From Paraspadella gotoi (lineage: Eukaryota; Animalia; Chaetognatha): 64,000 bases of DNA. Below the pieces are notes generated by a model, which saw only the letters and a list, made by a program, of their open reading frames with translations, ran no database searches and had not been told where the DNA came from. Below are positions 3,001-48,100 of this stretch, piece by piece. The stretch is from assembly GCA_051294375.1 (NCBI GenBank), contig CM119264.1:27291340-27355339 (forward strand). The letters are read 5' to 3'. The first letter of the stretch is position 1; each line of letters opens with the position of its first letter. The position numbers and the translations under genes are program-made.

Positions 3001-4529
3001 CTACGTCCTCGGCCTCGGCGACCGACATCTCACCAACATTCTCGTCGACTGCCAAACGGCGGAACTCGTACACATCGACTTTGGAATTGCCTTTGATCAG
3101 GTGCTGTTTAATATCGCTCGTGTAATACACTGCAATGTGATTCGTGTAGTCGGGCATTGCCTAGGTTCACCCCGCTATAAGCATGACTCTTTCAGGTGTG
3201 ACCCGGTGGCTCATTGAGTAAAGCCATCAGCTCATGACACTAGGTACCGGGTTCAATCCCAACCCGGTACCTACCCTGCGGGAAGAGTGAGGACGGCCGT
3301 AAGCCGCCTTGGGGGGATGGCAAACCCTCAAGCCTGGTTCCAAGCCCAGGACCCGTTCCATGTCTGCTAGAGGGGGTTATAGAAGTTACGGATAGTCATC
3401 TTCTGCCCACTTAGCGCCTTATCCACACTGGTGAGCCCATCCTGTCGAGCGTATTCCAACCTTCTGATTCCAGGCCCATGGACGTGCCGAAGATTGCTCC
3501 CCTCCCTCCACTGGAAGCAGTGTAGGGTGGGTTACAATCTGGGGGCATGTAGTCGGGCATTGCCTAGGTTCACCCCGCCTATAAGCATGACTCTTTCAGG
3601 TGTGACCCGGTGGCTCATTGAGTAAAGCCATCAGCTCATGACCACTAGGTACCGGGTTCAATCCCAACCCGGTACCTACCCTGCGGGAAGAGTGAGGACG
3701 GCCGTAAGCCGCCTTGGGGGATGGCAAACCCTCAAGCCTGGTTCCAAGCCCAGGACCCGTTCCATGTCTGCTAGAGGGGGTTTAAAGTTTACGGATAGTC
3801 ATCTTCTGCCCACTTAGCGCCTTATCCACATTCGATGAATTATTAAAATAGGGTCGCATTCTACCCGTTCCCGAGACGATCCCATTCCGACTCACGCGCG
3901 ACATTTTAGATCCCATGGGAATCAGTGGAGTCGATGGAGTCTTCACCCGATGTGCCGAGATCGTCCTCGGCGCCATGCGGGAGGGCCAGGTGGGCTAAAT
4001 CTTTAAATCGAGGTCAATCTGTGTAGAGAGGGAGAGATTTCCTCCCCCCTCATTTGGCATCGTTTTCTTTTGTCACCAGGGTGCGATCCGGTCGATCCTC
4101 GATGTCATCCTTCACGATCCGATGTCTTCTTGGACTCTTTCTCCGGCCAAAAGGCTGCAGATTCAAAAAGTGAACCGCGTAGCGCTGAGATGAACTTTTC
4201 ATTATAGTTACATATAAAATGTAATTTTAAAATCTTATTCCCATTTTTGTTTTTTCCCCCAGGATCGCCTGGAAGACCGAGAAGAAGCCGGCGTTGCTTC
4301 AACGACGACCTCTCGTTTGCCGATTGGCGTCTCCACTGCTTCTGGCGCCAACACCCTTGCCAAACGCGTTCTATCCGAACTCTCTCAAAAGCTCTCCGGT
4401 CACGTGGGCGGTGCGCGCGTCATGGGGCGTGGTCTGAGCGTCGAGGGTCAGGTCAAGCACCTCATACAAGAGGCCACGGATCCTGTCAAGTTATCCGCTC
4501 TTTTTCACGGGTGGAAGCCTTTCGCATAA
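1..4529 (+). CDS. ATM: Serine/threonine kinase ATM, 3' portion (FAT, PI3K-like kinase, FATC); multi-exon, 5' end outside window
   Basis: Exon translations [75 protein letters not shown]|[17 protein letters not shown] and the C-terminal [35 protein letters not shown] match ATM rather than ATR; GT-AG introns. Confidence 0.96.
3207..3260 (+). promoter_or_regulatory. tRNA-like internal Pol III promoter (A box/B box) in LTR, repeated in the second LTR
   Basis: TGGCTCATTGAG (A-box-like, 3207) and GGTTCAATCCC (B-box, 3250-3260) at tRNA-like spacing. Confidence 0.65.
3278..3356 (+). ncRNA. Twister ribozyme, type P5 permutation (LTR A copy 1)
   Basis: gcggg(P5)..agt GA gga(T1') cggccg(P1) T^AA gcc(P2) GCC ttggggg..ccctcaa(P3) G cctgg(P4) T tcc(T1) AA GC ccagg(P4') a cccgt(P5'); predicted cleavage 3300/3301. 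P2 is short and has one mismatch. Confidence 0.82.
3683..3760 (+). ncRNA. Twister ribozyme, type P5 (LTR A copy 2)
   Basis: Same motif as 3278-3356; predicted cleavage 3705/3706. Confidence 0.82.
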
Positions 4530-7992: not shown

Positions 7993-10900
7993 ATGTCGTC
8001 CCTTCGATGGACCAATTTGACCTTTCCTTGTTTGAGATGTCTCGCCGATCATCCTCTCTTGCCCCTCCCCGCAAACTTTCCAAAATGGTCTGATGCCGCC
8101 ACCGCTCGCGCCTTTAAATTAAGGACAGACCGAAGCTACTCCACGAAGCCCGGCGTCGCCCCGGGCGCCGATAATCGAGAAACTCCCTCGTCCGATTCGA
8201 GCGGCAATGACTCACAAAAACAAAAGGCCAGCGGCGGAGACGGACCCACGGAGGGCGCAGAGGAAAATGAGGAACTCGGAGATAAGGGCGAGGACAGGCC
8301 TTTCAAGGCGACCATGCGAGACTTCAAACCCAAGAGGTTCGACGACGTGCCCGGTGAAATCTTGGATATGATCCTTCCGCCCGTTAGAGATGAGCGTCTT
8401 TCCAAAATTTTCAGGTTTGTTCGCCGTCGTGATTGAGTTCTGAATTTTTCAGACGTCTGCCATTTGTTTTTTGTTGCGCAGCGGGTAATCGCGGTCGGTC
8501 GGTCAGTCTGTTTGTTGGTGGAACACCACTTACGTTTTAAATACTCATAATTTAGCTATTACTGCATCAATTTAATACTTGGCAGCAAGTCAATATGTCA
8601 AAGGGACCATCAGGTGCAGTCATGAGTTTTCCCGACAATATTTTCAATATTATATTATTATATTATGGCAACGGGAGGATAGCGTTACCGGCGCGGGGTA
8701 TCTCACAACTGGCGTAGGGGCTGCGGACCCTCAGTGACCGCCTCCTGTCACTGGCATGTTTATACGGCACGTCACATTTAAGCCAGAACCGGGATACCCA
8801 GGATTGAACCCGGGACGCACGGATGGAATGAGATGATTTAGCCTGCTCAGCCATTGAGCCGAGGCTGAGGCAGACAGCAGTGAGGCAGCTTTAAGTCTTG
8901 CTGCCACAGGATTAAGGGTTGCACTTAGGTAATATTTTTGCCCTGATTAACTGAGCAAAGTGATTCTGAAATTGCCTAGGTAAAGAAATGATTTTCTTAA
9001 TTAATATAGCCAATTTCTGAATCAAAATATTTTGCTTATATCAATTTTAAAGACAAATAAAACAATATATTTTATTTTATTGTTTTAATTTTGTCATCAA
9101 CTATATTTTCAATTTGTTATTACTATATTTTAAGCCCAAAAATACTTTTCCCAGATGGTATGAATATGATTATCAATAGTAGCATGGCATTAAGTCTGTA
9201 ATCTACTTGGCTACTACCAGAACCAGAACCAATAAAATTATTAAGGAAGATTAATTCATTGATATTAATTAATTAATTAATTAATTAACAGATAGTAAAG
9301 AAATTAGTAATAACAATTAGGATGCATACATTTAAAGAGATTTGCAATGTACGTAATTCAGTTGTATCCTGATATGATTGACAAGATTAAAACCTCGATC
9401 AAAGATTAATTAACAATGTACCCAAGACTCAAGTCGCACAAAATATTTTGTATCTTATTAAGAATGGCAAAGCTTACTAGAAATTCTTTGCAGAATATGA
9501 TATGGATTACTCAATACCTCCCAAGTGATTATATTAAATTCGAGCTCAATATAGAAAGTAAATATCTATGGATATAATTTCAAATATTGTGTTGTTTCTT
9601 TCTTTTGTTGTGTTTTTTTAGATTTGGAGAGAAAAAGAATTTCTTTAACAACAACGACTTTATTTATGATTAAGGCAGTGATTTCTATTCGGTATTTTCA
9701 AACATAGATTGAAATTATATAACTATTATTTCTTTTTTTTCCACTGATTAATATAAAACACGCTTCATTTAAAAAAACGGTTGGCTATAGTTATTTTCTC
9801 TTTATACCATCGAACTCACTGGTGAATTTCTATGCTTTCAAAATAGGTAAGACATAATTTTTTTACCTTAAGATGAAACTAAAACGATTTTTCATGGTAA
9901 GGCAACTTTTAAAGATTAAATTGTCGTCAGATCTATCACGTTTTTTAGAATATACTACAGATTAAGGCAAAAAAACGGCACGCTATATTTTAAAACTTTT
10001 TTCCATTTTTTCCACTATTTTTTCTCTCTTGAACCTTCTCTCTGTCCTCTCTTTTTCCTCTTTCTCTCTGTCTTTCTCTCCTCTTCTCCGACTTTTCTGT
10101 CTTCATATTTTTCTGTGTCATCCATTCTTTCTTCCTTTACCTTTATTTCTCTCTCTCTATCTCTGCTTTTCTTCCCCTCTCTGATCTTCTTTTTCTTCCT
10201 CTTTCTTATCTTTTCTTTCTCTTAATTGTTTTCGTTTTCCCCTTCTCCCCATATATTAATTTTTCACTCTTTTCTCTTCCTAACAACTTTTTTTTCACAC
10301 TGCTCTCCTTCTCTTATTTTTTTTTATTCTCACTCATTTTTTTGCATTTATATCATACTGGATGTATAAAAATCTTTAAAATGTATTGTAAGAAAAAAAT
10401 CTTGGTAGCGTATGATTTTATTCAAAGTGTTGGTTGCCCAGACTTTTTGCGGAAATTTTTTCCGCAAAAAACCTGTCGATTGAGAGGAAAAAAATTACTG
10501 ACGCTTTCCATTACCATTAAAAGAATGCGGTTTTTTTTAATTCGTTAACTTAGTATATTTCTCATCTATTAAAAATATAAAATAAGTAAAAACCGAGTTT
10601 TAGTTCAAATAAAACGCACCTCACAATCCTCACAATTAAAAGTTGATTAAAAATTTAATTTCTGCAAAACTATTAATTTTTTTTGCCTAATTTTTTAGGT
10701 ACCAGAAGCACCGTTGAAAGGGAATATTTGATTAGATTTGGGAACTTTTGAAGTATTTTCGTTAACAAATTGTATAAATGTAAAAATGTAATTTTTTTAC
10801 TAGTCAATTTAAAATTAATTCATAGGCAAACAATGGGATGAACCAACGGCAAATGAACCCATCAGTGGTAAAGAGATTAAGAATTACCGAAATCCGGAGT

Positions 10901-13900
10901 AAAAATTTTTCTTCAATGATCTTGACGTTCAAATCTCAAGACAAAAAGTCAAAATGGACAAAATGGACATAATTTTTTTTTATTAAAAGTTGCAAAAAAT
11001 TATATCGATCTTGATTAGAGAAAAGCAGCAGATGATTTAATTAATCCGTAGTCAGCCCACTTTGTCTTAGGGTTCAAATTTAATCAATTCTGTTGATAAT
11101 ATTTCTAGCAATATTGCAAAAAAGTGGTTTTTTTTGCGATTCCTCGTAGAAATCACTGCCTTAAACATACATGTTTCGACTTAATTTGCAAATCTTCATC
11201 AGTGCTTATTTAATTTTGATGATACATAATTTTTTGTTTCACAAGTAACAGTGAGAAGGATGGAGGGAAAGAGAGAGAGAGAGAGAGAGAGAAGAAATAA
11301 ATGTTTTCTAACAAAGAATAAAAAAGGACAGTGGTCAGTTTTGAGGATAGGGTAAGTTTGAGCAGAGAGAGAGAAGGTGGTGAGGAAAAGAAATTAAAAT
11401 TTTGCAGAGAGAGAGAGAGAGAAGAGAGATGCAGAGGTCAAACATTAGATCAATACATTATGCATCTTATACATCTTATACAATATTCATCTTTCTTTCT
11501 CTCTGCCAAATTTCAATTTCTTTTCCTCACCACCTCTTTTCTCTCTGCCTCAAACTTACCCTATCCTCAAAGCTGACCACTAAGGAGTAGTGAAAGTTAC
11601 ATACAAAATTCTAAAAGTCAATTATGAACAACATACCATCAGTGAACATTAATTTGTAAAAAAAACTAATTTTATATTTTTTAATTTTGCAGTAGGCTAT
11701 ATTTATATATAGTACTATCCTTATAAAATCGAAAAATTCAAAATAGGCTTTTCTTAATTTAATTGCAGATTTGAATTCCTCGTCAAAAGTTGATAAAAGA
11801 AAATATAAATCATTTTTAAAAATTCTTTCATTAAGTGGGTTAAAAATTTAAAAAAACTATAATTAATATATAAAAGGTTAATTTTTAGCTTAAAATATAA
11901 CTTTTTCTAATTTTTGACCCACTTAATGAAGGTTTTCAAAAAGAGGTAATTATTTTTATAATCACTTTTTATAATGAACTCAAATCTGCAAAAAAATATT
12001 AGAAAAACTGTTTTGAAATTTTAATATTTATTGGTTTAGTACTAGTATAAATATGGCCTACTGCGTAAATTGTAAAATTTATTATAATTTTTTTTACATT
12101 AGTATAATGTTGTTCGTTCCTCACTTTTAGAATTTTAATTAAAGTTAAATTAGAATTTTACTACGCCTTACTGACCACTGTCATTTTTTTAATTCTTTGT
12201 TGAAAACATTTATTTCTCTCTCTCTCTCTCTCTCTTTCTCTCCATCCCTTTCACTGTTTACTTGTGAAACAAAAAATTATGTACTATCAAAACTAAATTT
12301 GCACTGATAAAGACTTTCAAATTAAATCGAAACATGTATGTTTAATCATAATAAAAAACATTGTTGTTAAATTTTTTTTCCCCTAAAAATCCAAAAAAGT
12401 TTTTCTTCTATTTTTTCATCATTAACAAAGATTTTAACTCAAAATAAAAAATGACATCTTTGAACATTCTGAAAAATGTTTATCTTAATTAAAAACAACT
12501 ATATAATGGACTCCAACCCCTGTCACCAAACTTGGTTAAATCTGAATAAATATTTTTAGCTATTAATTTTATTTTACAAAAAAATTATTTTGTCTTTCAT
12601 TGAAAATATTCTAAAAATATTTGGGCTAAAACCAATTGAATTTCAATGTTGAGCAAATTAAAGTTTTAAATTTGATAAAGATTTTGTTTAAAAATAAATA
12701 CCGAAAAATATCCTATTTTGTAATTTTTTTTAATTTTAAATTTAATTTAATATTATTTGGTTTTAAATTATTGAAGAAAATATTTTCCTTTTAAATCTTA
12801 GCTAGCGGTAGCCGACCAAATTCAAATTTTAATGGGAACAGCATTAAACTAATCCATTATTGGTATTAATTATTGTGTTAAAATATTTTTTTGCAAAAAT
12901 TCCGAACCATGAGTAATTCGCTAATTAATATTATTATAATGCTATATAATGTCAAAAATTTTTTTTGGATATTTTAAGTTTTTTTAATTGATTCTGATAG
13001 AGCTTAAAAAGTTAAGCAAAAAATATAATTACAACTTTTTTAAAATTTTGATGTTTTATTGCTAAAATTAGTAAAAACTGTTAAAATCATCGGATGATGA
13101 TGATGATGATTTTTTAAGGTTTTTCTCAATTTAAACCCACTTATATCAAAATATTGGAAAAGAATTATACTTTGTGTAGATAACTTTTCATAAGCTATTT
13201 GAATCTGCTTTTAAAATAAAAAATTCAAAAAAAATTTTTGACATTTCCTATCTATAAATAAATATTAAAAAATTAATTACTAATGCTTCTTGCCATTTTA
13301 GAAAATTTTGCTCCATTGAAAGTTTCTCAGAAATGTATGAAGTTTCATTTGGAAAGGTTCCCAAATCAAACTTCTGACCCACCCATTGACGAAGTTTGGC
13401 TCTATCTTAGCAAATTAGATCATAAGTTTGTCAGTTATATCTTAGTTTTTAAGCTCCTTTCCTCAATTAAAAATTGCCTACTTTTATTCAGTTAACTACT
13501 AGGTAAACCAAAAATTGTCTATTACCTATTTAAGAAAAAAATTTTGCCTAAGTTCACCCCTTACACAGGATCCCCCACCAGACTTCTCCACAGGGGCCTC
13601 AATCCTGAGGAGATGTCTGAGAGAAGGTTTTGATCTCATTGCCATAGTGAGAGCGAGCGGGCGAGCAAGTCTGGAGCGTTACCAGAGAAGTAGGGCATAG
13701 GCGTGATATGCATACCCTAAGCGACTGAAGCGTGGGCGCACGGTGCGCAGCGGTTGCGTGTTCGAGAGTAGGGCTCACCACTTATGGCAACGGGAGGATA
13801 CCTGTGATACCCGGGGCGCGGGTATCTCACCAACTGGCGTAGGGGCTGCGACACCCTCAGTGACCGCCTCCTGTCACTGGCATGTTTATACCGGCACCGT

Positions 13901-16900
13901 CACATTTAAGCCAGAACCGGGATACCCAGGGATTGAACCCGGGACGCACGGATGGAATGAGATGATTTAGCCTGCTCAGCCATTGAGACGAGGGCTGAGA
14001 CGGACAGCAGTGAGGCAGCTTAAGTCTTGCTGCCACAGGATTAAGGGGTGTGGAAATTCTTAGGCGTAATATTTTGCCTGTATTAACTGAGCCAAAGTGA
14101 TTCTGAAATTGCCTAGCGTAAGAATGATTTTTCCTTAATTAATATAGGCAATTTCTGACATCTTTTTTCTCTAAGTACTCAGAGATGGCGGCACATGCTT
14201 TTGTGACCTCGCCCGTTGGAAATACTGTCATTTCTGTCACTATTGTTGCTGTAAGCTAGTAAGTTGTAAGCCGTAAGTTAGTCCCATTAGAGCTGGACCT
14301 CCCTTTACAATGTACAATGTACATATTGTGGCGGTATATTCACACCGCCTCACGTCCTCCATCGTTCAGCCAAATCCATTGGCTCAGAGGGGGAACGCAC
14401 CATCCCAGGCGTAGTGTTCCGTCCACAGTCCTAACGACTTCCCTCTGCGTTGGCAAAACGAGACCGTCCCAGGGTAACCGCGCCAGTGACTGGAGGCGTC
14501 ACTGAGGGTCGGAAGCCCCCAAAGCCAACAGTGAGATGGCCCATCCCAATGGGCATCACAGGCAACCCGGCTGTTGCCATAATATACATTTTGAGTTGAT
14601 GAAGCCTCGAAACGACTCATTTTATTATAATCGTTCAGACAGGGCAGGACGTTAAGTTTTATCCGGATATATATTATCCGTAGTATATTAACTAAAATAA
14701 CCAAATAACAATTAAACGTATTAACTTTTTAAACACGTAACATATGGTTCATACTTGTGTAGTCACGTGATCATCGGAAAAAATGTCCTTATGGTCATTG
14801 CGTCGCAACATCTGGATCGAGACCCGCTTAAAACAATTATTGACTCATAAGTCAAACGCACATTTTAGGGGTTGTAACGTCATGAACGAGGGCACTTGGA
14901 CCATCGAGTATTCTCGTCGTCAATGGCAGGATTTGAAATATTTGTACGGAGATGATCGAGACATCGGTGGACTTGCGGTAAATTTATAAGTGGGACCCAA
15001 ATGAAAAAAGGCTTTCAAAAATTGGTAAAATATAACGCGAATTTTTTTCCCTTACTTTAGTTTATTTCACTTATTTTTACAAATCGTCTCATTTCAATCA
15101 AAACCATTTCCTTCGTCTCCCCCTCCCCCCCCCTCTTCTACCCCACCGTCTTCTCCATCGCCAGGGTTCGTCAATTCACCCACGAGAGTTCTGGATGAGA
15201 CTTCTCCGCGATCCCGTCGTCTTGACGCCCGCATCCTTCGACTATTGGAGGGAAAAGAAAGACGTGGATATTTGCAGGGTGAAGTTCAGATGGATGTTGG
15301 ACTAGGGGAGGCAGTGGTTGAAAAGGATGGAGCTGTTAGTGGTGTCTGTTAATGTGTTACCACGTCGTTTATTGTAATATGAATTGTAAAAACTACAAAC
15401 CTATTTTTCCATTTCCGCTACTCGCTCTTCATTTTTCGCCAAGGCAAATAGTTCTCACTAAAATGTCAGTCACTCTATAGGGATCGCAGTTTGACGAGGG
15501 TCGTCGATCCTCCAGGAATCCAAACCCTTTATCTTCCACCTGATACAATTATTCAAGAGAGAAAAAAAAATCCCGAATTTGATTTGATGGAACCGTTAAT
15601 AGTTACAGCACGCAAATGGTCTAACCATTCGTGGGATCCTGACGGACGCAGTTCTGTCGGCGACCCCAGCGCTGAAATTCTCTATCGACGACGTCTCGTG
15701 TTTTCCTGTCAAACGTCTGAGGTTGTCTTCGCCTCCTTTGGGGTCGTAGGCCTTGATATGCGCAGAATGGCGGTCTTTCAGCGCCTCGATTGCCTTCCAA
15801 ATAACCTACCGAGATAAAAATTTATAATTTTTTTTCCCGATACAACTCTGAGTTCACTGTTTTACCTGACCAATCTGGGTCTACTCGCCTCTTTTCCACC
15901 TTCCGTCCGCATAGCGTCAGTGCTGAAGTTACAGTGACATCCAGCTCCGTTCCAGTCGCCCTCCACAGGTTTGGGATCCAACGATACAACGACCCCGTAG
16001 TCCTCAGCGACGCGCTCGAGCAGGAACCGCGAGAACCAGAGTTGGTCGGCGGCCTCCACGCCCACCGTGGGGCCGATCTGGTACTCTGCCTGCGCCGGCA
16101 TCACTTCCATATTGGTCCCGCCAATGTCGATTTCGCAATAGAGGCACGCCCTGAAAGTGGACATACGGGGCTCTTGAGTAACTTAACCAAACATAACAAC
16201 AACCTCTTCTTATTGTTATGGCTTTTACAGTTAAAGCCTTTGTTTTTACATTTGTTTTATCTATTTAATTTAGATCTATCATTATAAATTTCGCTTTTAT
16301 CTCGCCAGACGGACGAATGCTCGACTTGGGCGAGATGTTAATTCGTTTCTGCTTCTTTTGACCGTAGTCGTCATTGTCATCGTCGTCGTCATGTTGTGTA
16401 ACCATAAGAAGCTGAGAATTTAGATATGAAATTGGTACAACCAATATAAAAATCATCCATTCATTTAATAAATAAGCTATCTTGCCCCTGACTTTGGACA
16501 GGCTTTGGTGGTTTAAGGCCTCCATTACTCTTGCAAGATAATGACATAGCAGGTCCTGCAAGCTTTCAATCAAGACTTTCTCAACGTCTCGTTTATTCAC
16601 TTCCAGAGTACCTGGCTTCCCTATCAATGAAGTTATATAATATTTAAAGAATGTTTCAATTGTATGAAAAGACCACTCCTTAAGTATTAGATCGGGGAAT
16701 ACTTATTGTACTCCGCACTAGCATCAAAATACAAAGAGCCGAATTTTATGAAATTGGTACAACCAATATAAAAAATTATACCATTCATTTAATAAATTAG
16801 CTATCTTGCCCCTGACTTTGGACCGGCTTTGGTTTCTCATCATTGAGGGCTTTTAAATTGTTATGTTTTATATTCCTACACTCATGTTTGTTTTATTTAC

Positions 16901-19900
16901 AAAACAATTTTTATATATAAACGAGTTCAGCTCTGCAGCGGCTGTCCAGTTTCTCTCTTTTTCTTTCATCTCTCTTTTAATTATACGTCGCTCTTTTTTC
17001 TGTCTTTTTTCTGATTCTTTTAAAAACGAGTTCGCTCTGCAGCGGCTGTCCTGCGGTTGTCCAGCTTCTCTCTTTCTCTCTCTCTCACTCATACATGTAT
17101 TTGTTTGTTTTTATTTATAATGAATGAATCGCGTCAATGAATGATTATCATCGGATCAATGTATGATTATCATCGGATCAATGAATGACTATCATCGGAT
17201 CAATGAATAACTATCATCACATCAATCCTTTGGTTATTATCGCATCAATATATGGTTATCATCGCATCAATATTTGGATATCATTGCATCAATAATCAAT
17301 TACTATTACATTAATCATTCAATTATTATTAGCTCAATTAATCAATTACTATTATATCAATCAATCAATCAATCAATTACTATTAAATCAATCAATCAAT
17401 TACTTTCCGCAAAATTTTTATTTTCAATAAGAAAGAACTGCGATCGGAATTCTAAGATGAATTGAAAGCGTAAGTCAGGTTCGGTGAAAATCATTAATAG
17501 TAAAAACGTTCTCTCAAAGGGATGTTGTATTGTTTTATTGCTAGTCAACTCGTCCCATTTTAAGGAAACTTCAAAATTATTATATTCCTATCATTTTTTT
17601 CAAATGCATACAAGAACATATTCAAAAAGTTTATGGCTTCATTAGTCATGACCATCCCCTACCTGTAATGCGCCTCCGAAATATCACGCCCCTCTATTTT
17701 TCCGGCGCCCACACCACAGTAAAACGGACCTTGCCTGGCCGGAAAACCAGCGGGTTTTGGCCACCCATACGGCCAGCCATCCACGTCAAGCATAGTGTAC
17801 TCTTGCTCTGTGGCATGTAAAAAACCAATTAGTGCAAACTGCATAATGCATATAGTATCTTTCTTCTTAAATTAACTAGCCAGAAGTTTGTCTGGATATC
17901 CTAAAAGCAACAAGGTTTTATTAAAAAATAAATTGATGTATATTAAAAAGTATTTCATTATGAGATATTGTTTTTGTAAAGATATAAGATAATGATATCA
18001 ACCGTTTAGGTTCCTTACCCAGCCCGAACCATGGATTTTGGTCCTTGATTGCCTCCATCGCATCATTACAACTCTTTCGATGATTCGTCGAGGCAGGATT
18101 TCCGTCACCCTTGAGGGACTCGCACAAAACTATCTTGTTGGCGCCCCCTCGGAACGGATCTGTCATCGTCCAAAAGAAAAGGACCAATGTTTTGTTCTCT
18201 CAAGTGTTCTCTCATTTTACTCCTTCGGTTCTTTTTCCTAATTTTTTTGTTGCTAATTTCTGTTATACAATTCTACATTTGCAGTCCTTCATGCCAAGCA
18301 CTAATCCAAGTTTGTGTCTCAAACTATGTTGCCAAGACCCCACGTGTTGTACCTCTAAACATTCGGATTGGTTTCAGTTTCATGTCACTGTTTCCGCCTT
18401 CACTCTGTAAGGGAAAACAAAATTTTGGTTTGCCCAGCAAAACAACTTTTATTCTATGTATTCAATTTGATCGAGTCGTATTAGTCAACAACCTGATATG
18501 TAGATGACCCATCGTAGCTCCACAAGATGCAGTCCTCGACCCGATCCGGTTCCTTGGCGACGGTCATCGTTTTCTCACGCATATTCACGCCCGTTCCGTC
18601 GATCCACACGTAGGAAACTTGTATGCGATTTTTTGGCTGCGGCAGCGACATATAAGTGGTAGTGATGCCGCTGCGGTACCACGTGTTGCGAACTTGCTGA
18701 GACGAAAGCGACGTCTGTCGCAAAATGGACGCCTGGATCCAAGAATGGGGGCAGCGAGAGTTGTTCCCGGTCGACCTCTCGTCGGACAGAAAGGTTTTAT
18801 TAACCTGGTCTAGTAGCTTCTCCAGTTGACCGTTAGCCCGAAGCCTTTTTATTCCTTGTCCTATGACTTTAGCCATTTCATTTGAGTTTCGAGCATGAAG
18901 TTAAAACTAAGAGGGACGAAACTCAAAATTGATTTAATAATTAAAAAAAATTGTTATTATCGAAAATAAAATAAAAAAAAATTGTTTAAACGCTTAAGTA
19001 GGATTTTTAAAATTATGAAGTACGTACGATTTGTATGTCTGTTGTAGGTTTTTTTTGTTCTGAATTAATCTTGTTGCATTCTAATATAATTTGATTTTTT
19101 ATTGACCGAACGTTATAGTGTGGACTTTTCGGATTAAATCCTAATGATAAAAAGTCCAATTTTTTTCTGAAAATTCACGGGCAATATTGTCTTGGTTTGA
19201 GCTAGAAAAGAATGCTTTGGAAGTTAAGCTTTATGATTAATGGGTTTTTAGGACTTGTGAAGGTGTGAAGGTCGGAGATTTTTGACGAGTGCCTGAGAAT
19301 TCTCATTCTTAATAAACACGAAACGGAATTGAATTAGCGCTTTTGCGAGATAAGCAAGAGAGCGACGAATTTAAAGAGAGAGAATCGAAACTATTGATCT
19401 TGACACGAGCTCTTATATTGCAGGATTTTTCACATTAAGCCTTACATTTATTATGTAGAAATTAAATTTAAAAGTATATTTAATTAGATATTTCCTTTAT
19501 AGAAGTTTAGTCGGGTTAATTTATTTTCGTATTTAAGTACATAATCATAATTTAGAAAAGCGAATAATAAATAAAAATGCTTACAAAACGAGCAACAATT
19601 TTACTGTTACTCGAGAACCTGACTTTTTATTCTCTTTTAAATTTAAAGCGGTTTCAAGTCTACGATGTTGATCTACAACGGTCAATGGGAGCCGAGTTGA
19701 TGTGCGCTCGCTTCGTGGCCAGCTTCGGCGGCAAAGTCAAGTTCCACGGTTTCAAGGACTGGTTCGACCACACAAACTACAGACGACTGCCTAGAGCTTA
19801 CAAACCTGAGTTTGTTTGTGAGGTAGCTGCGGTTATAAATATTCATAATTATTATAAAGTAAGAGATATTTTGTCAATAAATCGATATCATTATAGGCGA

Positions 19901-21245: not shown

Positions 21246-24200
21246 ATGGAAAAAGATCAACCTCAAACTGCACCAACCGTAGCCGCCAGCGCCGTCGGAA
21301 TTTCTGGCGAGACGGCGACAGCGGCGTCGTCGGGGACGAGAAACACGGCGCCGAACTCGATAAAGAATTACATCGGTTTCGAAGACGTCGTCGTCGAAAG
21401 GGCGAGGTGAGTTGGAGTAGGTTAAGATAAAAAGGAGTTGGTTTTGTTTTTAAATTCGTTCTAATGCATATCTTTACCTAACCTGTCATTCCAAAAACCT
21501 CACTTTCATCTTCACTTAACTATATCGTCTCCCTCGAATCAAAAAAGGCCGACGAAGAAGTTGACCCTCGTGGCTCAGTTCGACGACCTCGTCCGCCGGA
21601 CCGACTGGTTGGTCACGGAAGACGAAGAGACGCGGCGCTTGATATCCTTGCTGCGTCAACAGGATGACGCGAGGCGGGTGTGGCTGCGTCTTGAGACGGA
21701 TCACTCGTGCTGCGCAGAAAGAGCCGAGGCGTTGCAGCAGGAATGCCGGGCGATGGAGACGCGACTCAAACACGCCCGCAACCAGATCGCCCTCGAGATG
21801 GAGCGGCGTCGATCGGCGGAGCGGCGTCGGGCGGCGGTGGAGCGTCAGGTGGCTGAAGTGAGGGCGCTGCTGGTGGTCGGGGGAGCGGAGGAGGATGAGG
21901 AGGGGACGGCGGAGACGTCGAGAAAAGTGGACAGGCACTCCATCCTCAAGACGCTGGAGAGAACTGAGTGAGTTGAAGGATGATGGGGGATGTGGGGAGA
22001 GAGATTTTTTAAATATCAGTTGATGTTGAAAGCACAATTTGATAAAAGAGAATGCTTTTACCCACCCTAAAAACAAAAACAAAAACAAAAAAAAAACCAC
22101 AAAATAATTTCCTCTTCTCATACAATACACTATTACACATACATATACGTACATACATATACGTATACATTATAATAATAATAATAACTTTATCGATTTT
22201 CCCATCCTAACGATAGTTTCGGCACGCGCTCGCACTTCGTCGCTCCTCCTTCGCTACCGACGACTACCGATTCCGCGTCCAGATCCGGCGCCGAACTTCA
22301 CACGGGCCAAGGAGGCGCTCCGCCGGTGCGGACGCCGCGGCGTCATCTGCATCACAAGGTCTCGGTAAGTGCGAAAGGAGCGTATAGCAGACGAGGAAGC
22401 TGTTACCAGTTGGAATATGTTAAATATAATGTCTTATCAATATTAATTTATTATCAGATCGACGAATCTTGCAACTCGATTTTGGACGACGACATCTCTT
22501 ATGACAAAACCGAAGACGATCTCGAGACGAAGGCTCCCGCCGTCATAGACGACGACGACGAAGAGGACGACGACAAAGGAGGAGGCTTCGTCACTTTGCG
22601 GAGAAGCAAGCCGGCGGGAAAGGGAAGGAAGGGCGAGAGAAAGTCGAGAGAAAGGCGGGGAAAGAGAAGCTCTAATGAGACGTCGCTAGTGAAAAAAGTC
22701 AGTGAACTATAACATTTCTGTTTTATTTTTGTAATTAAAACTATAGCATGTAAATAAACCCTGAACGACTTTTTCCTCTTTGCTCAGATTTTGAAACGAG
22801 GACAAATCTCCGTCCACGAAGGAGAAGCGCTAGTGACGCAAGCGGCGCTCGTCAAAGACGCCGGATCTGGCTTTGCCGCCGCCTTCGAGATCTCCACCGT
22901 TCCGGCTTCGGGTCTCGGCGCCGCCGCCTCAGTCGGCGTCAGCTCCGACGCTCGCCCATCCGCTTTGTTGGGGACAAATGAGAACGGCGGAGTCAATGGA
23001 GACACAGGTGATGAAAATAAAACGCTATCTACTATTCACTTTGTCATTCTGTCGGTCCCCCACCAAAATCTTGTCGGTAAGTTACATGTCAAATTGTTAG
23101 AGACAAATTCGTGCGGACATCGAATTATGAAAAATTATGCAAAAAAAATCGGTGTTCTTCCGTCCGTCCGTCTGTCCCTCCTTAGCTTTGAACGCCAATT
23201 ACTCATGAATGGATAGATGGATTAAGATGAAATTGTGTGTGTAGCAGATCGTAGTGTAAGTATCGTACAAAAATTCTTAGTCAATTATCAACAACTACAA
23301 CATACCATCAGTGAACATTAATTAGTAAATAAAAAAAATTAATTTTATAACACAATTATGTGTTTTATTTTTTATATATTTATATATGAAAATTTGCAAA
23401 ATTACACTATCTTACATTTTTATATTTTATGAATGTTAGTCATTGTATATATTTTTTCGTTTTGTTGTTCATAAGATTAGCAGATTCAAAAAACGAAAGT
23501 TTTTAATATTTTTACAACAATTTTATTACAAATTATTGGACGTGTTTCGACTCTTGTTTTGTTCAAGTCTTCATCAGCATTTGACAGTTATAATTTTTCA
23601 CAATCATAAAGTTGAGGAGAGAGAGAGAGTGAGAGAGAGAGAGAGTTTCCAACAAAGAATTGAGAAAGGACAGTGGTCAGATTTTAGGACAGGTGAAAGT
23701 AAGGACAGGAAAAAGGGGAAATAAGTTGATTTTTGTGAAATAGTGAAAATGAAAGAGAGAGAGAGAGAGAAACAATACATTTTGAGATGTACAATAAGGC
23801 GTAGTGAAAGTTACGTATGGAAATTCTAAAAGTAAATTATGAACAACATACCATCAGTAAACATTAATTTGTAAAAAAAAATTATTTTATGTTTTTTAAT
23901 TTTCGCAGTAGGCTATATTTATATATAGTACTATCCTTATAAAATCGAAAAATTTCAAAATAGGTTTTTCTTAATTTTGATTGCAGATTTGAATTCCTCG
24001 TCAAAAGTTGATAAAAGAAAATATTAATTATTTTTAAAAATTCTTTAAGTGGGTTAAAAATTAAAAAAACTATATTTAATATATAAAAAGTTAATTTTCA
24101 GCTTAAAATATAGCTTTTTTTAATTTTTGACCCACTTAATGAAGGAATTTTTCAAAAAGGGTTATATTTCTTTTTATCAACTTTTTATGACGAATCCAAA

Positions 24201-27200
24201 TCTACAAAAAAAACTTTAAAAAAACTGTTTTGAAATTTTAACATTTATTGAATTAGTACTAGTATAAATATGGCCTACTGCGTAAATTGTAAAATTTATT
24301 ATAAATTTTTTTTATATATATATGTTCATTAGTATAATGTTGTTCGTTCCTCACTTTTAGAATTTTAATTAAAGTTAAATTTAGAAATTTTATTACGCCT
24401 TAATGTACAACAAAGATAAATGAATCAGTAAACTAAAGGAATAATAGTAACAGATTCGATTCGAGCTTCTTCCAAGCTACAATTCACTCATCAAGTTGGC
24501 GGTGGAATACCTTACACCACCCCAACCGCACGGGGATTCCCCTGTCCCCACTCAACGGGTCAGGCGGAGGCCTCTCAGCAGGCAATGGACGTCCAATGCC
24601 TCTGAGGCCTATAGCAACTTGGTGCGACCCTTCTCGCACTGAGCATCGACTGAAACGGCAGCTGCAGGAGGAAGGAGAGGAGTCTGTATCACCTGCACCC
24701 AAGCAGTCAAGAACAGGCAACCGCCCACCTCACCGGCAGGTGAGAGGGCAGTTGGCAAGCCTATCAGGCAAAATACATATTCGAGTGGCACTCGGCATCT
24801 TCCCAAGTGGATCACTGCCCGATCCCAGGGTGTCAAACTTTATAAAAATATCTTCTCAGCCTTTGACAGGTCAATGACCCAATCACATTGTCAATGTCCC
24901 CAATTTCCCCGGCCGGGGGGGGGCAGCTCAATTTAAGCTTCTTTCTTAACTTAATTTTTCTCTAAATCTCTACTTATCTATCCCTCACTACTACAATTAA
25001 TCAATTTCACTTATACTTCATTAGTTAAATCAATTATTTCTTTTGTTACTATTATTCCTTTAGTTTACTGATTCATTTATCTTTGTTGTACATTTCAAAA
25101 TGTGTTGTTTCTCTCTCTCTCCCTCTCTTCATTTTCACCATTTCACAAAAATCAACTTATTTCCCCTTTTTCCTGTCCTTACTTTCACCTGTCCTAAAAT
25201 CTTACCACTGTCCTTTCTCAATTCTTTGTTGGAAACTCTCTCTCTCTCTCTCTACTTTATGATTGTGAAAAATTGTCAAATGATTGTAAAAAACTGTCAA
25301 ATGCTGATGAAGACTCGAACAAAACAAGAGTCGAAACATGTCCAATAATTTGTAATAAAATTGTTTTAAAAATATTAAAAACTTTCGTTTTTCGAATCTG
25401 CTAATTTTATGAATTTTTTCCTATTTGATCTATATTATTTAATTATATATATATTACTTTTTTTTTAAATTGTTTGCTTATTATATCTAATAACTCATTT
25501 TGGGATTCATATATATTATTCTTATAAAATCGAAAAAAATTAAAATAGACTTTTCTTAATTTTGTTTGCAGATTTGAATTCCTCGTCAAAAGTTTATAAT
25601 GAAAGAATTTTAAAAAATTTATATTTTCTTTTAATTCTTTTAATTAATTATTATTAATTTTTACTATTTTAAAGATAGTTATTGCACCAGTTTCTATGAA
25701 ATTTGATAGATTCAACATTTTTTTTGGCATTTGAAAAAGGCTGGTTAAACTCGCCGAAACTCTAAAATTCTGAACGTTATTTGATTAGTCTTAGAGAAAT
25801 GAGATTATCTAAAATTTATCAAAACTTGGAAGCAATCATTAATCATGTATTTATCCGTTCAAATGCGAAAACATTTTTTTTTTCTAAATAAAAAGAAAGT
25901 GTCAGAAGTGGGATTCGAACCCACGCCCGCATACGCGGACCAGAAGTCTCTACTGCCTACATCGGCAAAGCTCAACGCTTGAGTCTGGCGCCTTAGACCG
26001 CTCGGCCATTCTGACAATTAAGCTGAGAGCAAGCTCAATTCGATCATAAACAAGTCAGGAGTTCGATACGAGCCTTTTACTTTGATTTGGACTTTGAGAG
26101 AGAACGAGAGAGAACGATCGGTCTTCCTTTAAATCCCGATCTTTTGTTTGTTTTCGATAAATTATATAAATTTAGAGGGTACAAATAAGACAAATTTGAG
26201 CTTTGATTACAAGGTCCGGAAAAATTAATTTCTTAAATTGCTAATATTAATTCTTCCGGAAAAAGAAAATATCTGGAACAACATTTTTTTTTCTAAAATG
26301 TTATAGAATTATCCATTCATTTAATAAATAAGCTTATTTTCCCCTGACTTTGGACAGGCTTTGATGGTTTAAGGTCTCCATCTCTCTTACAAGATAATGA
26401 CATAGCAGGTCCCTGCAAGCTTTCAATCAAGACTCTCACACAGTCTCGTTTACTCGCTTCCAGAATACCTGGCTTCTCTATCATTCTAGATTTCCTTTAT
26501 CCTTTAATTTCTTCAATTTTCGTCAGCCGACGGTCTTCATCAGCAATCGCCGTCTACTTCTTCGCCGAGCAGCGGCAGCACTGGTCTTCGTCAACCTCCG
26601 TCGCCGCTTTACCATCGCCTCGTCGCCCGGTCCAACGCCGCCTCTGTTGCCTCTGCCACTCAAGCCGAGTCGCCCAAGAAATCCTCCGTTTCAAGCAAGA
26701 GGGCGCCGAAAACGGAGCAGAGGGCGCCGTCGGCTCGCCGACCAGAAGCGACAACGGAGGCGGCTGAAGCGACCGAAGTGACTTCACCGTACAAACAGTC
26801 CGTAGTCGCGGACGTGCACTTTCAGGAAAGGTGATTTGCTCGACTTGGTTTGCCTTGGTTTTGTTCTCTTATTATGGAAAGATTATATTCCTTTTTTTTT
26901 CCAGCCCCACCATAAGCTTTCGCGGCGCCAAGGTCTCTCCCCCGCGCCCTCCTCAACCTCCGCCGAATTATCAACCCTCTTCTTCCGCCGCTGATAACAA
27001 CCACGCCTCTATCGCTCCAGCCACCGCCCTTCGTAGTTCCGGTTCGGCGGCGTCAAAGGAAGAGAAGGCGGCGCCATTGGAGACGCAGTCGGCGCCGGTC
27101 GCAATAGGCAAAGGGTGAGGTTCTCTGGATGACAAATTTTGTCGGGTGAGTTGATCGTCTAGTCGGGAAAAATATTTTTTAGGAGGAAGGATGGCGAATA

Positions 27201-39789: not shown

Positions 39790-40387
39790 TAAGGAGTAGG
39801 GTGAAGTGAAAGTTTGGAATCAAAATTTAGCAGTTATATCTTGAAAACTATCATATTAATGAATACTAATCTATAATTATTTTTTTTTTTTATAAATATA
39901 GTAGCCCAGTCAGCTTATTTTATATATAGTATTACCCTTATATAAGGTTAAAATTTCAAATTTTTTTTTTTTGGAATTCTGAGAACAGATTCTGATTCCT
40001 CGTTAAAAGTTAATATAAGAAAGTATAAATCTTTTTCAAAAATTATGTCATTAAGTAGGTTAAAATTACAAAAAACTACATTTTTAAGCTAGAAATTTAA
40101 AATCGGTGTCATAAATATAGTTTTTATATTTTTAAAAAAGAATTATACTTTCTTATAATAACTTTTTGCAAGGAATCCAAATCCGATCTTAAAATTAAAA
40201 AATTTGCATTTTGAAATTTTAGCCTATTATATACTTATTACTATGTATAAATATAGCTCACTGGTGCCCACTAATGTATAAAATAAAAAAATTAATTTAC
40301 CAAAATATTTTTATTAGCTTTTATGTTCATGTTTTATATGTTAAATTTTAATTTTCTAAAATTTTATCATTTTCACATCACTCTACT
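39790..40387. mobile_element. Diverged relative of the 590-bp hAT-type MITE
   Basis: Starts TAAGGAGTAG; shares CAGATT..ATTCCTCGT.AAAAGTT and ATTAAGT.GGTTAAAA blocks; palindromic; right end truncated, no TSD. Confidence 0.65.
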
Positions 40388-43561: not shown

Positions 43562-44924
43562 TCAATCACATTGTGCGGGCCAAGCTTTCGCTTCGAGGTC
43601 TGCTTTGGCAAGGCCCTCCAGGAGCGGAACATCAAACACCACCGGCGGGTTGCAGGGATTGTAGAGAATATCGCAGGTAGAAGCGTTAATGTACGTCGTT
43701 TGCCCGTCGTTCCAGCATCCGTAGTCCTGTGGAGAAAATCATTAGCTTTCTTAATCCACGATAAGACGTTTCAAGATTTAATAGTTTTCCAAAAAGTTAG
43801 TTCGACTTCGTTGCACACTTCGGTTTACTCATCAAACAAGAGATTCTCTTTAAATAATAAAAGAAAAACAGGGAAAAAAGGCTTTCAAAGAACAAAACGG
43901 TTGAAAGTTACACAGATCAGCCCCTCAAATGTATCCTCCCTTCTCTGACTCACTTCGTGAATATGACCGAAAACGTGATAGGCAGGCTTCACCCTCCGCC
44001 GCACGGTCTCGAGCAGTTCGACGCAACCAACACGATTACCACCCTTCACTTTATCCCCAAACCCCAAGGGTGGTCCGTGGGTGACCAAAATATCCGTTTC
44101 TTCGGGAATCGCGTCCCATTTTTTCAGGATCGTCGCGCCTCTGACAAGGTTGAAGGCCCAACCTCCGAAGACAGGTTGCCAGGGCGATCCCCAAATCCGG
44201 ACTCCACCGATTTCGACGCCAGAGTCTTCGAGGTAGATGGCGTTGGTTATGAGGGTTCGCGGATCACTCGGGGGCGGGGAAGATTGATCGGAGGGTTGGG
44301 CCAATTGGCGAAGAAGGTCAAAGTTGATAGTGGGCTTGCCGTCCACGGACGCGCGTCCAATACTGAGTTCGTGATTGCCTGCCGTTTTGGTTAATAATAA
44401 TGGTAATAATGAAATTGGGACAACCAAAATAAAAATTATCCATTCATTTAATAAATAAGCTATCTTGCCCGACTTTGGAATATTAGTAATAACTTGCAAA
44501 CAAACCGGCGATCACGACGACGAATTTGTGCGGCAAAGAACCCAGGAAGTTGTTAAACCTTTTGATTTCGTCAATTTTGCCGACGTTCGTGAAGTCGCCG
44601 GCGTGAAGGAAGACGTCTCCGGGCGGAATCCCGAAATCTCTGTGCCAGCTCTGCGCTCCGTAACGGGTCTCCCTGGAGTTCAGTAAGAAATGGTCACAAA
44701 GTAAAAATCTGAATCCGACGATTGAAAACCGACTTGTTATGCGTGTCGCTCATGACAACGAATCTCAGTCTGTCTGGGTGGACGGGAGTATCCAGGTCGA
44801 GAGGCTCGACGGCCTTCTTCCCGACTTTCCGCTTTATCAACCGCCAAACAGTTGAGGGATATTCTGTTTCAGGGTGAGGCGAAATTGCCGAAGAGGCTTT
44901 AGTCCTTAGCGAAGTGGCCATCAC
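43562..44924 (-). CDS. MPPED2: Metallophosphoesterase MPPED/239FB family
   Basis: RFVVMSDTH, GDVFLHAGDFT, AGNHELS, WGSPWQP, LVTHGPPLG, HVFGHIHE, YINASTC..PVVFD. Paralog assignment (MPPED1/2) is not resolvable. Confidence 0.9.
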
Positions 44925-45184: not shown

Positions 45185-48100
45185 TCAGAAAACCGCTAAA
45201 ACCCTTTGATTCGGGCATACGGTGGCATTCATTGACGATATTGGTAAAATTCCAACGCAGCACTGTGTTTTCGGTGGCGTCATCTTGATAGCCTTGATCC
45301 CAACGACGCGGACGTCCACCCAACTGGCCTTTAGGAAGTCGGCCGAAGACACCACGGCGAACTTGGGGTAATGAACGGCGGGCACGAAGACTTCAGTGGG
45401 GGCGGTGACGGCAGAGTTGAGCTCGAACACAAACTTGGTTCTTAGAGTATTTGGATCAAATTCGAAGGATAAGGGAACGCCTGGAATTTAATATAAGATA
45501 ATTTAATATAATTATATAATTAAATTTAAATAATTTTTTTGAATTGTAGATAGCAGACTGTCATATTAATTCTTAAGTGATTATTAATAAATATATATAA
45601 AAATATGCTGATTATATTTAATAATAGTATTAATTAAGAAATATTTTTATGGTAAACAGAATTTTAATAAATATGAATATTATATTTTCTGAATAAAAGT
45701 GAAAAAAGTGTCAAAACTTCATTTTATTAGAAAATAATAATTATTAACATTTATATAAATTAGTAATACATAAAAAATCGAAGTGCATCTTTAGTACATC
45801 TTTTTGCTGCACTAACTTGTCTTTTGGGCTAAAAATAAATTTTGATGTTTAGATAAAATAATTGACTTAATTTAATAAAATGTTAAGGTGTTTAATTAAG
45901 CTTAGCTTATTTTATTTTTTTAGTTTAAATTTCAAATAGTCTTTCTAAAGGGAGGAAACCTTATGTCAAAATAGCCTGTCCAGAGTCGGGGGCAAGATGC
46001 CTAATTACAGTCCTGTGAAAAAAAAAGAGGACACTCTTCAACTCCAAGTTGTGCTCATTTTACGCACATATAGTAGAAAAGTTTTTATTTTTATTTTAAA
46101 CAACGAATTTATTTAACATAAAAAACTGACATGTTTCGGCTTCAATGTAAGCCTTCATCAGAGCAAAAGTAAATTGAATTGTGAAACAAATATTTTCTCA
46201 GAGTTTGAAGTTTAGAGAGAGAGAGAGAGAGAGAAAAAGAGATTAAAGTTTCCAACAAAGAATTGAGACAGTGGTAGACTGAGAATAGGTTAAGGCTCAG
46301 GACAAGTGAGTGAAGGAGAGTGAAAGAGAAACGAAAATTTGATCAGATTGCCAAAGTACAGTGAAATACATTTAGCAATGTAAAGGAAAAATTATCATTG
46401 AAAAAAGTAAACTGTGAATACATTTAGCAATGTAAAGGAAACATTAATATTGAAAAATAGTAAACTTAAAAATAACAATTAACTAAATTAAGTTTTAGAT
46501 AAAATTAATTTCATTAAATTTAAAACCAAGAACAAACTTTGGCCCGCCTGGCTGTAAGGCAAGAAGAGGGCAGCCGGCAGGCTAAAAAATCCACTTTTTA
46601 GTGGGTTTTTTGTTTTTTTAAGCTTTTTTTTTTGGGAGAATTTTTAATGCCAACCCTGTTACCTGCAGTGGCTCGTGGATACGGTCTAATGAAAACCTTC
46701 ACCATGTTTTCGTTCAGTTTCCGCTTGGCAAAGTCACTGTAGAATTCTTTTCCGCCCAGTCCATTGGACCACACTGTCCACGATTGAAGATACTGATCGG
46801 CAGTTTTAAGAGTAAAGTCTACACTTTCCCGGCAAGAATCCTTGTTGGCGTTCAATTGGCAGGCACAAAATTCAGTGAGAAACGTTCCCCCTTGAAGACG
46901 AAAAGGCCTCATTTAGTCCCAAGAACATACCAAGTACATACGATTAATAAAAATTTCCAATACCTCCCAATGCTTTTCTGTCATTTTGTACAGTCTTGAA
47001 GGAATCCGGTCCAACCACTTCGTTGCAGATGGTTCTGTACAAGGGACTCAACGGTTTGTGTTGATCCACTATCGGCCAACAATAGTAATGATAACTCATT
47101 GACGAACGATCCTGGATTTGATACAAAGTTATTTTATATTTATTATAAATGAAAAAAAGAAGAACCAATGAGATTGTCAGCCTACTACCTTATATTCATC
47201 CCCTCCCGGCACGTGGACAAATCCAGTGCCCGTCGATTTTCCCCCCAGCGCGTCTGCCCAAGTGACCGGCTCGTAGAATATAATGGTCTCGTTGTCCGAC
47301 TGCCTGATGCCCTTTTGCACTGCCTCGTAAAAAGGCTGCAGATTTAGGCGTCCCGCGTTGCCGGGCAAGAGAAGGAGCGGGTCCTCGTAGAAATAGCCGG
47401 CGAAGGGCTCGTTGATCAGCTCATAGCCGAGGACGTTGGGGTTCGCGCTGTGAAGTGAAAATCATTTTGAAATGTTTGTTTTGATTGATTAATTGACTGA
47501 TTATTTAATTATTGATTAATTAATTGACTAATTGATGAATTAACTGATTAATTATTTGATTAATTCATACATCTTGCATTTACATTTAATATAAAAGAAG
47601 CATAATCATTAGTGAAACAGGTTTTTTGTTTTTTCCATTTAAACTCATTTCCACTCAAACAATTCCATCGAAACTTGATTTCCAGCTTTCCTACCCACCT
47701 ACAAAATTTCAGGTCAATCGCCCCAACCACTCATGAGCAATTGGTGTTCAAATAGTGAAATATATTTTTTTGTTTCTTCCATTTAAACTCATTTCCACTC
47801 AGACGATTCCTTCGAAACTTCATATCCAGCTCAATCACACACTTCCCTACCCACACACAAAATTTCATTCCAATCCATCCATCCAATCACGAGTAATTGG
47901 TGTTTTTTGCTAAGGTGGGACGGACAGACGGACGGACGGACATCGTTTTTTTTTCATAATTTAACATAATTCGATGTTCTGACATGATATAAGTGACAAG
48001 ATGCCCGACAAAATTGAGGGGGCGGACCGACGGACCGACAAAGTGAATTATAGAGTCGGGATCTGCTAAAAGCAGATCCGACTAAAAATTTATGAATATG

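Follow-up and report, generated by a model that had tools for sequence, protein, structure and literature searches.

Two groups of small non-coding retroelements come closest to the locus described here. Plant long terminal repeat (LTR) retrozymes carry one ribozyme per LTR, a primer-binding site (PBS), a polypurine tract (PPT), duplications of 4 bp at the target site (TSDs), GC contents above 55% and solo LTRs (PMC4918200, PMC7761336). Their ribozymes are type III hammerheads, their PBS is of the tRNA-Met type and their circles measure 600-1000 nt. Cuts in both LTRs would leave such an RNA without a terminal repeat, a problem that is reported to be solved by circularisation and reverse transcription from the circle, within which the ribozyme is blocked (PMC4918200). 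Plant retrozymes are said to be without promoters (PMC7761336), and an LTR promoter was reported in one of them (PMC9695139). Animal retrozymes are described as having no LTR, PBS or PPT (PMC7229834, PMC7761336, 10.64898/2026.07.22.740005). The second group, Helenus (TRIMp3; Kojima 2024), comprises miniature non-coding LTR retrotransposons (TRIMs) with a tRNA promoter, of which those in animals have TSDs of 4 bp and presumably depend on partners of the Gypsy type (PMC10886601). In this study, we analysed a 64,000-nt stretch of the genome of the chaetognath Paraspadella gotoi (assembly GCA_051294375.1, contig CM119264.1, positions 27,291,340 to 27,355,339; hereafter the window, numbered from its first letter), in which TRIMs share features with both groups and carry the fold of another ribozyme, the twister. 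An LTR-PBS-PPT-LTR anatomy with candidate PBS and PPT, 4-bp TSDs, the A and B boxes of a tRNA-type promoter, the letters and pairings of a twister and many insertion sites are visible in sequence and reads. We propose, at a probability of about 0.58, that these TRIMs with tRNA-type boxes and a twister fold work as an animal, twister-based LTR retrozyme that is copied by a Gypsy partner.

The five LTRs of the window belong to three TRIM insertions, not five. Of these, A is complete, C is a solo LTR, and B is interrupted by a DNA element of 4.65 kb. Element A (3145..3830, plus strand) is a non-coding TRIM of 686 bp inside an intron of a PI3K-like kinase gene, which we take to be ATM-like, and is flanked by the TSD TTCG at 3141-3144 and 3831-3834. 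Its 5' LTR (3145..3427, plus; 283 bp, TG...CA) and 3' LTR (3548..3830, plus) differ by 0 substitutions and 6 gap columns. Element A is therefore young; the gap columns may be residual long-read errors, although the unique flanks of A are identical to short-read contigs. One base past the 5' LTR lies the PBS candidate TGGTGAGCCC (3429..3438, plus), and a G-rich tract before the 3' LTR (3520..3547, plus) is a weak PPT candidate. B runs on the minus strand, with a 5' LTR (B2, 13783..14037), an internal region of 215 bp (13568..13782; PBS candidate 13780-13771, G-rich PPT candidate near 13580-13572) and a 3' LTR (B1, 8664..8908); an alignment of its two LTRs shows 6 substitutions and 12 gap columns, and its 5' flank is rearranged. 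In both elements the candidate PBS is a TGG-starting 10-mer directly past the 5' LTR, and the candidate PPTs consist of short G-runs. The window has exactly two occurrences of TGGTGAGCCC, at 3429 (plus) and 13780 (minus), in line with the PBS candidate common to A and B that had been proposed earlier. B1 was also considered as a solo LTR and rejected, having no TSD and a flank that is accounted for by the 8-bp duplication of the inserted DNA element. Solo LTR C (14327..14581, plus) has the TSD ATAT and is related to the B LTRs; as the initial annotation had noted, along with this TSD, B and C share the ends TGTGGC..GCCATA (TG..TA, against TG..CA in A) and a 5' hairpin. This hairpin (8880-8908, minus; 14010-14037, minus; 14327-14352, plus) lies in U3, the part of the LTR upstream of the predicted transcription start, and contains two doubly changed pairs (GGCAGC/GCTGCC versus GGCGGT/ACCGCC). 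By blastn, A has no match to B or C. GC contents are 0.56 (A) and 0.57 (B), and neither A nor the LTRs and internal region of B contain an open reading frame (ORF) of at least 100 aa.

In its promoter region, the element resembles Helenus. The 5' LTR of A carries a tRNA-type A box at 3207-3216 and a B box at 3250-3260 (3207..3260, plus), repeated in its 3' LTR at 3611 and 3655 (plus). The B boxes of B1 and B2 lie at 8810-8801 and 13939 (minus). Both A and B have the two boxes, which precede the ribozyme. On both strands of the window the B-box pattern has only five matches, namely A1, A2, B1, B2 and a tRNA gene near 25921. In A, it is not a tRNA T arm but a perfect hairpin (GGTACCGGG/CCCGGTACC, 3242-3270) that holds the B box in its loop. 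A functional tRNA in the LTRs was rejected, as ARAGORN at its default reports none, which is also described for most Helenus (PMC10886601). As judged by sequence, the element has the testable features of Helenus: it is non-coding, shorter than 1.3 kb and has two LTRs, a candidate PBS and PPT, a 4-bp TSD, tRNA-derived A and B boxes in the LTR and solo LTRs. It differs in what follows the tRNA-like part, a short and mostly T-rich tail in the Helenus consensus LTRs covered (PMC10886601), but here 136-167 nt that contain the twister fold, with no TTTT run on the sense strand of the element. The twister lies where these LTRs mostly have the T-rich tail and therefore probably supplies the RNA ends. 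The available text of the Helenus paper never mentions twisters and has ribozymes only in a reference title; motif searches of the part of its supplement that was covered gave only three unrelated passages (PMC10886601).

Past the B box, all five LTR copies have the same order of parts, P5 - P2' - GA - T1' - P1 - U^AA - P2 - GC - P3 - P4 - U-T1-NA-GC - P4' - P5', which we read as the P5 permutation of the twister with an additional P3 and outer helix. The copies lie where the initial annotation had placed them: A1 at 3278..3356 (plus; predicted cut 3300/3301, P1 CGGCCG at 3294-3299), A2 at 3683..3760 (plus; predicted cut 3705/3706, 405 nt past that of A1), B1 at 8786-8709 (minus; predicted cut 8762/8761), B2 at 13914-13834 (minus; predicted cut 13888/13887) and C at 14449..14529 (plus; predicted cut 14475/14476), the last behind an A box at 14380. 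The U^AA, the general-base GA and the second pseudoknot (T2, GC/GC) are kept in five of five copies. The first pseudoknot (T1) is perfect in A1, A2 and C, as UCC/GGA in A and CGG/CCG in C. P5 reads GCGGG/CCCGT (A), CTGGC/GCCAG (B) and GTTGGC/GCCAAC (C), and P3 reads TTGGGGG/CCCTCAA in A versus AGTGAC/GTCACT, with identical arms in B and C; these letters were as first described. P4 has 3-5 bp in all copies, although that of C is AGGG/CCCC with an outer mismatch, not the AGGG/CCCT proposed before. Type-P5 twisters (Rfam RF02684; in a clan with RF03160) have the same strand order, U^AA, GA and GC letters, U-NNN-NA-GY loop, two pseudoknots, P2 and P4, the last two of which are flawed in some of the copies here. 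They differ in a P1 hairpin of ~21 nt in the Rfam consensus, against a palindrome of 6-8 nt here; in addition, scores here are below gathering, A, B and C have a P3, and every copy has an outer closing helix. Two other readings were rejected. For C, the Rfam alignment gives a P1-type reading through downstream sequence, in which CGG would face UGG as its T1 partner, whereas with the upstream CCG its pairing is complete. For A, the Rfam alignment to the P5 model takes the P3 loop as the L1 strand.

Between A and C, all three T1 pairs are changed on both sides. At alignable positions, the compensatory change that had been claimed for the three LTR variants comprises these pairs together with a few between B and C (one each in P5, P2 and T1, plus the two in the 5' hairpin). 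The P3, P4 and P5 of A differ in length from those of B and C and cannot be aligned with them, and they thus speak for the same fold, not for demonstrated compensatory substitutions. For B, the earlier T1 of CCG/CGG appears only when both copies are combined, neither being clean. In a count over the two B copies and C, pairing holds for 92% of cells, and a change on both sides is seen in 4 of 27 pairs, a number reached by 15 of 500 shuffles, which is not a probability. A strict descriptor, built from the Rfam letters and these copies and hence shaped with knowledge of them, matches three of the five copies (A1, A2 and C), with 0 matches in 40 block-shuffled windows and 0 in 3000 shuffled LTRs. 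A relaxed descriptor is undiscriminating (69 matches in 100 shuffled windows), and two of its seven real matches are AT-rich noise. MAFFT did not bring A or the repeat family D (below) into register with B and C. A covariance model from B1, B2 and C placed A2 in register at an E value of 0.45 and A1 out of register at 0.19; it found no new copy and did not match D. A single origin of A and B/C, implied by the earlier description of one old, diversified family, is consequently not shown, and the label 'old' is only half right, as A moved recently. Selection for the twister fold, which had also been suggested, is supported by the catalytic letters in all five copies, the T1 changes on both sides and family D, which changes T2 as well, in three to four lineages only. 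Natural twisters tolerate imperfections in P1, P2 and P4, but not in the pseudoknots or the catalytic letters (PMC11662667). The copies here follow this pattern, with a weak P2 in A1, A2 and C but intact pseudoknots and catalytic letters, so that ribozyme activity is plausible for A1, A2 and probably also for C.

A feature that sets these copies apart is P1, which is 6-8 nt long and reads CGGCCG in A, the self-complementary TGCCGGTA in B2 (13896-13889) and the near-palindromic TCCCAGGG in C (14467-14474). It forms no stable hairpin in A, B2 or C, and none of the LTR copies has a hairpin-closed P1. Self-duplex energies are -10.7 (A), -10.9 (B2), -8.4 (C) and -9.1 (copy 1 of family D) kcal/mol. 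In A, B2 and C the inner P1 pairs, for which a hairpin would have no need, are complementary in five of six cases (chance ~0.006 at 60% GC, although B and C are related and thus not independent). A P1 that is palindromic and too short for a normal hairpin suggests cleavage in pairs. Minimal hammerheads of Penelope-like elements have a short, palindromic stem. Such hammerheads cleave as dimers (Lunse et al. 2017), a vestigial helix being completed by the pairing of two ribozymes; they differ in ribozyme class and in their location in pseudo-LTRs (PMC7761336). P1 is dispensable in twisters (PMC11662667), so that the missing hairpin marks a variant and does not exclude the twister class.

The proposed mechanism can be outlined as follows. 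RNA polymerase III (Pol III) would start just upstream of the A box (~3198) in the 5' LTR and, meeting no T-run, would read through the 3' LTR. The P1 palindrome of one copy would pair with that of the second, and both LTR ribozymes of one transcript may then fold together as a dimer; no other step of the model is as insecure, because P1 is dispensable in twisters. The ribozymes in both LTRs would then cut and free a unit-length RNA, 405 nt in A, without a terminal repeat, which a host RtcB-type ligase would close into a circle. The circle would restore a whole LTR and serve as template, primed from the PBS and copied by a Gypsy-type partner. In favour of this model, the folding of the predicted A circle has a z of ~ -3.5 relative to 100 mononucleotide shuffles, although this control is lenient. 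As in the plant LTR retrozymes, the element is non-coding with a ribozyme in each LTR, and cuts in both would leave no terminal repeat; it differs in host (animal), ribozyme (twister), tRNA-type boxes and a unit of 405-467 nt. No hammerhead family is among the Rfam matches over the LTRs; the element thus does not belong to the plant retrozymes, although it probably works in the same way. SINE-like (short interspersed element) repeats of Schistosoma also have a Pol III promoter and, behind it, a self-cleaving ribozyme by which unit-length RNA is released from longer transcripts; they differ in being tandem non-LTR hammerhead repeats with no PBS or PPT (PMC6765202). It is tempting to go further and to speculate on a lineage of animal LTR retrozymes with a tRNA-derived Pol III promoter and an obligate-dimer twister, circularised and present in thousands of genomic copies, but as a whole we regard this fuller version as doubtful.

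The abundance part of this picture comes from the contigs of four sequencing runs, which were compared with element A; read-level variants and depth refer to family A, to which this element belongs. In run X1, 8480 contigs were placed on A. Flanks other than those of A precede the LTR start in at least 117 of the X1 contigs, with a further 45 shifted by one base, and follow the LTR end in 83; they are mostly AT-rich and amount to more than 100 distinct insertion flanks. Summed depth in LTR bins was mostly 0.2-1.0 million versus ~100 on the unique flanks, which is not a copy number but points to thousands of copies of family A. The high abundance deduced earlier from the five LTRs in the window is therefore supported for family A by reads, not by the local count. 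Two fully internal bins reached 0.13-0.20 million, below most LTR bins, as would be seen if many LTRs were solo. Variant rows number 134; among the 40 listed, 10 fall in the two twister cores of A, and each of these affects either the P3 loop or the bulged base of P2'. In run X9, exons were covered, unique intron parts were not, and two exons were joined; our guess is that this run behaves like RNA. It contained 604 family A contigs.

Several observations weigh against the retrozyme reading. Cleavage, circles, the Pol III transcript and the autonomous partner are all predictions from sequence. Both B copies are damaged as assembled: B1 is one base short in T1' and one in P1, and B2 has a T1 of only TCG/CGG with a G-U pair as well as a 1-nt insertion in L4. 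P2 is 4/4 in B but weak in A (3 bp around a bulge) and C (2/4). Rfam twister models match four of the five copies at 19-27 bits, with gathering thresholds of 37.6 and 67.2, and give no match to B2. C has an A box only, with no recognisable B box, and the lack of TTTT is not significant alone, being shared by 29% and 37% of shuffles. B1 and copy 3 of family D have a broken P1 palindrome, as has C at its centre, and as P1 is dispensable, a dimer may not be needed. As 19 of the X9 contigs continue past the LTR end into different flanking sequence, embedded copies or trace DNA can explain the family A signal in this run. Nearest-neighbour folding, which leaves pseudoknots outside its model, recovers P2 in no copy tested and P4 poorly in B and C; for A, P5 falls from 0.82 to 0.01-0.02 once U3 is included, an effect by which the 3' LTR copy could be blocked. 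In the predicted A circle, and in any context preceded by U3, the 5' arm of the ribozyme is sequestered by U3 in these folds. Such a sequestration would fit a blocked circle but casts doubt on the 3' cut, and it is weak evidence either way. In this A copy, U3 positions 3186-3193 can pair with the 5' arm at 3281-3288 in an 8-bp helix, and the two bases of one of its pairs, 3188 and 3286, are both minority alleles in the reads; the U3 block may therefore differ between subfamilies.

The same folding bears on the alternative that fares best, in which an active twister would be a 3'-end processor only. A linear RNA would begin in the 5' LTR, where Pol III starts, and end at the cut of the 3' LTR, its terminal repeat of ~100 nt would serve ordinary LTR strand transfer, transcripts cut in the 5' LTR would be lost and no circle would form. 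The geometry indeed leaves a usable repeat (~3198-3300), Helenus was argued to move by the standard LTR mechanism (PMC10886601), and with no T-run terminator something must form the 3' end. However, the LTRs are near-identical, so that the 5' ribozyme would need selective silencing, and equilibrium folding points, weakly, in the opposite direction, with P5 at 0.82 in the 5' context and 0.01-0.02 in the 3' context. We consider this alternative unlikely, though it deserves to be kept in view.

A further source of twisters in the window is family D, an AT-rich repeat (35% GC; extents 16416-16836, 26307-26483, 44409-44479 and 45973-46006), which was found afterwards from a weak Rfam match. Copy 1 (16479..16539, minus) has a P5-type twister fold without P3, a perfect P1 palindrome (AGGCCT), T1 CCA/TGG and T2 AC/GT; its general-base G is replaced by A, and Rfam Twister-P5 aligns over positions 1-58 at 19.7 bits with 0 nt in the P1 loop. 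Copy 3 (26343..26395, minus) has an intact general-base G and T2 AT/GT, but a broken palindrome (AGACCT) and a decayed P5. The pseudoknot pairs of family D are thus new (T1 CCA/UGG, T2 AC/GU and AU/GU). A second, partial copy lies 324 bp off and begins near the cut site. No LTR ends, PBS or tRNA boxes were seen in the family, which could be a non-LTR retrozyme with a twister or else a terminal repeat of the Penelope type.

Family D may also be the twister source in another explanation, according to which the twister of the LTRs is a decaying passenger from a tRNA-headed SINE-like repeat or a Penelope-type terminal repeat, while the TRIM moves as an ordinary Helenus. The damage in B1, B2 and C, the sub-threshold Rfam scores and the occurrence of the same twister design in family D, outside any LTR, would agree with a passenger, and SINE capture was proposed by Kojima as the origin of such TRIMs (PMC10886601). 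A passenger in decay is harder to reconcile with a compensated T1 between diverged LTR families, with the catalytic letters kept in both LTRs of the recently inserted A and with the listed family A variants that avoid the core, and we regard this explanation as rather improbable, more so than that of a 3'-end processor. Finally, a chance reading of GC-rich hairpins would fit the missing gathering-level Rfam match and the 0.69 matches of the relaxed descriptor per shuffled window, but is very improbable given the clean shuffles under the strict descriptor, the twister-model matches to four LTR copies and family D, and the catalytic letters in the same order and at the same place past the B box in unrelated primary sequences.

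With the retrozyme reading preferred, it can be asked whether a precedent exists. Twisters in LTRs or TRIMs were not found in the open-access literature, although subscription papers, Roth et al. 2014, Repbase and further supplements may hold some, and the available portions of PMC10085705, PMC12542633, PMC12859917, PMC13570524 and PMC6154101 contain no precedent. In animal retroelements, the open-access literature searched has twisters only at the 5' ends of RTE elements (PMC8501958). These T-variant twisters of Perere-3/RTE (Liu et al. 2021) likewise serve an animal retrotransposon, but one that is non-LTR and protein-coding, with a single 5'-end ribozyme whose P1 is completed by the target site (PMC8501958). 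No description of natural twister dimers was found in the same literature. Pattern scans of viral contigs gave 0 and 0 matches, the second pattern matching none of the window's own copies either. A metagenome pattern scan gave 14 loci, none with LTR-like direct repeats; one contains an unrelated type-P1 twister (contig L011, 881-941, minus) at 48 bits, below gathering.

The window itself is gene-dense, with the PI3K-like kinase, a clathrin-adaptor small chain, TAF7, tektin and an MMS22L-like fragment. Named matches of TAF7 are nearly all animal, the best at ~50-53% identity, and five environmental proteins match at 78-86%. Neither a reverse transcriptase nor an integrase family was found among the 34 window ORFs scanned. 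The DNA element that splits B (8913..13563, 4.65 kb, no strand assigned) is AT-rich and non-coding, with terminal inverted repeats (TIRs) that match in 19 of their first 22 bases. It was inserted at the PPT/3' LTR junction of B and is flanked by the 8-bp duplication CACAGGAT (8905-8912, 13564-13571), by the length of which we take it to be hAT-like. Its only two ORFs of at least 100 aa both lie within a pyrimidine-rich stretch, and nested AT-rich fold-back repeats occur inside it (e.g. 11161-12345), with kin at 23468-25413 and 39875-40298. A third CACAGGAT with ~120 bp of the TIR-element end that flanks B1 lies upstream of the B 5' LTR (14034..14158) and may be what is left of an earlier tandem unit or else stem from duplication in the assembly. 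Elsewhere, a GC-rich segment of ~500 bp (24455-25000) lies in the middle of a large fold-back element, the arms of which are at 23468-23808 and 25044-25413. The tRNA gene at 25900-26015 (minus) has a long insert in its anticodon loop, scores 50.7 bits with Rfam, was missed by ARAGORN and is presumably of Leu type with an intron. Tandem repeats of 22-23 nt and related AT-rich arrays in opposite orientation lie at 17128-17416 and 47481-47570.

In summary, beyond what was first noticed at this locus, this study adds a tRNA-type promoter, a palindromic P1, the insertion that splits B, P2 and family D. The young 686-bp A copy with its two intact predicted ribozymes is directly assayable, and its palindromic P1 is a simple test case for natural twister dimers. 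If dimers were obligate, cutting would wait until both LTRs are transcribed and would yield exactly one unit-length RNA. Published retrozymes fall into two classes: those of plants are LTR elements and carry type III hammerheads, whereas those of animals are non-LTR repeats and carry type I hammerheads. If the retrozyme reading is true, the P. gotoi element breaks both rules, being an animal element with true LTRs and another ribozyme class, and the circle-based route would have evolved again with a different catalyst. For TRIMs driven by Pol III, it would also offer a possible answer to the open point of how the ends of the transcript are set.

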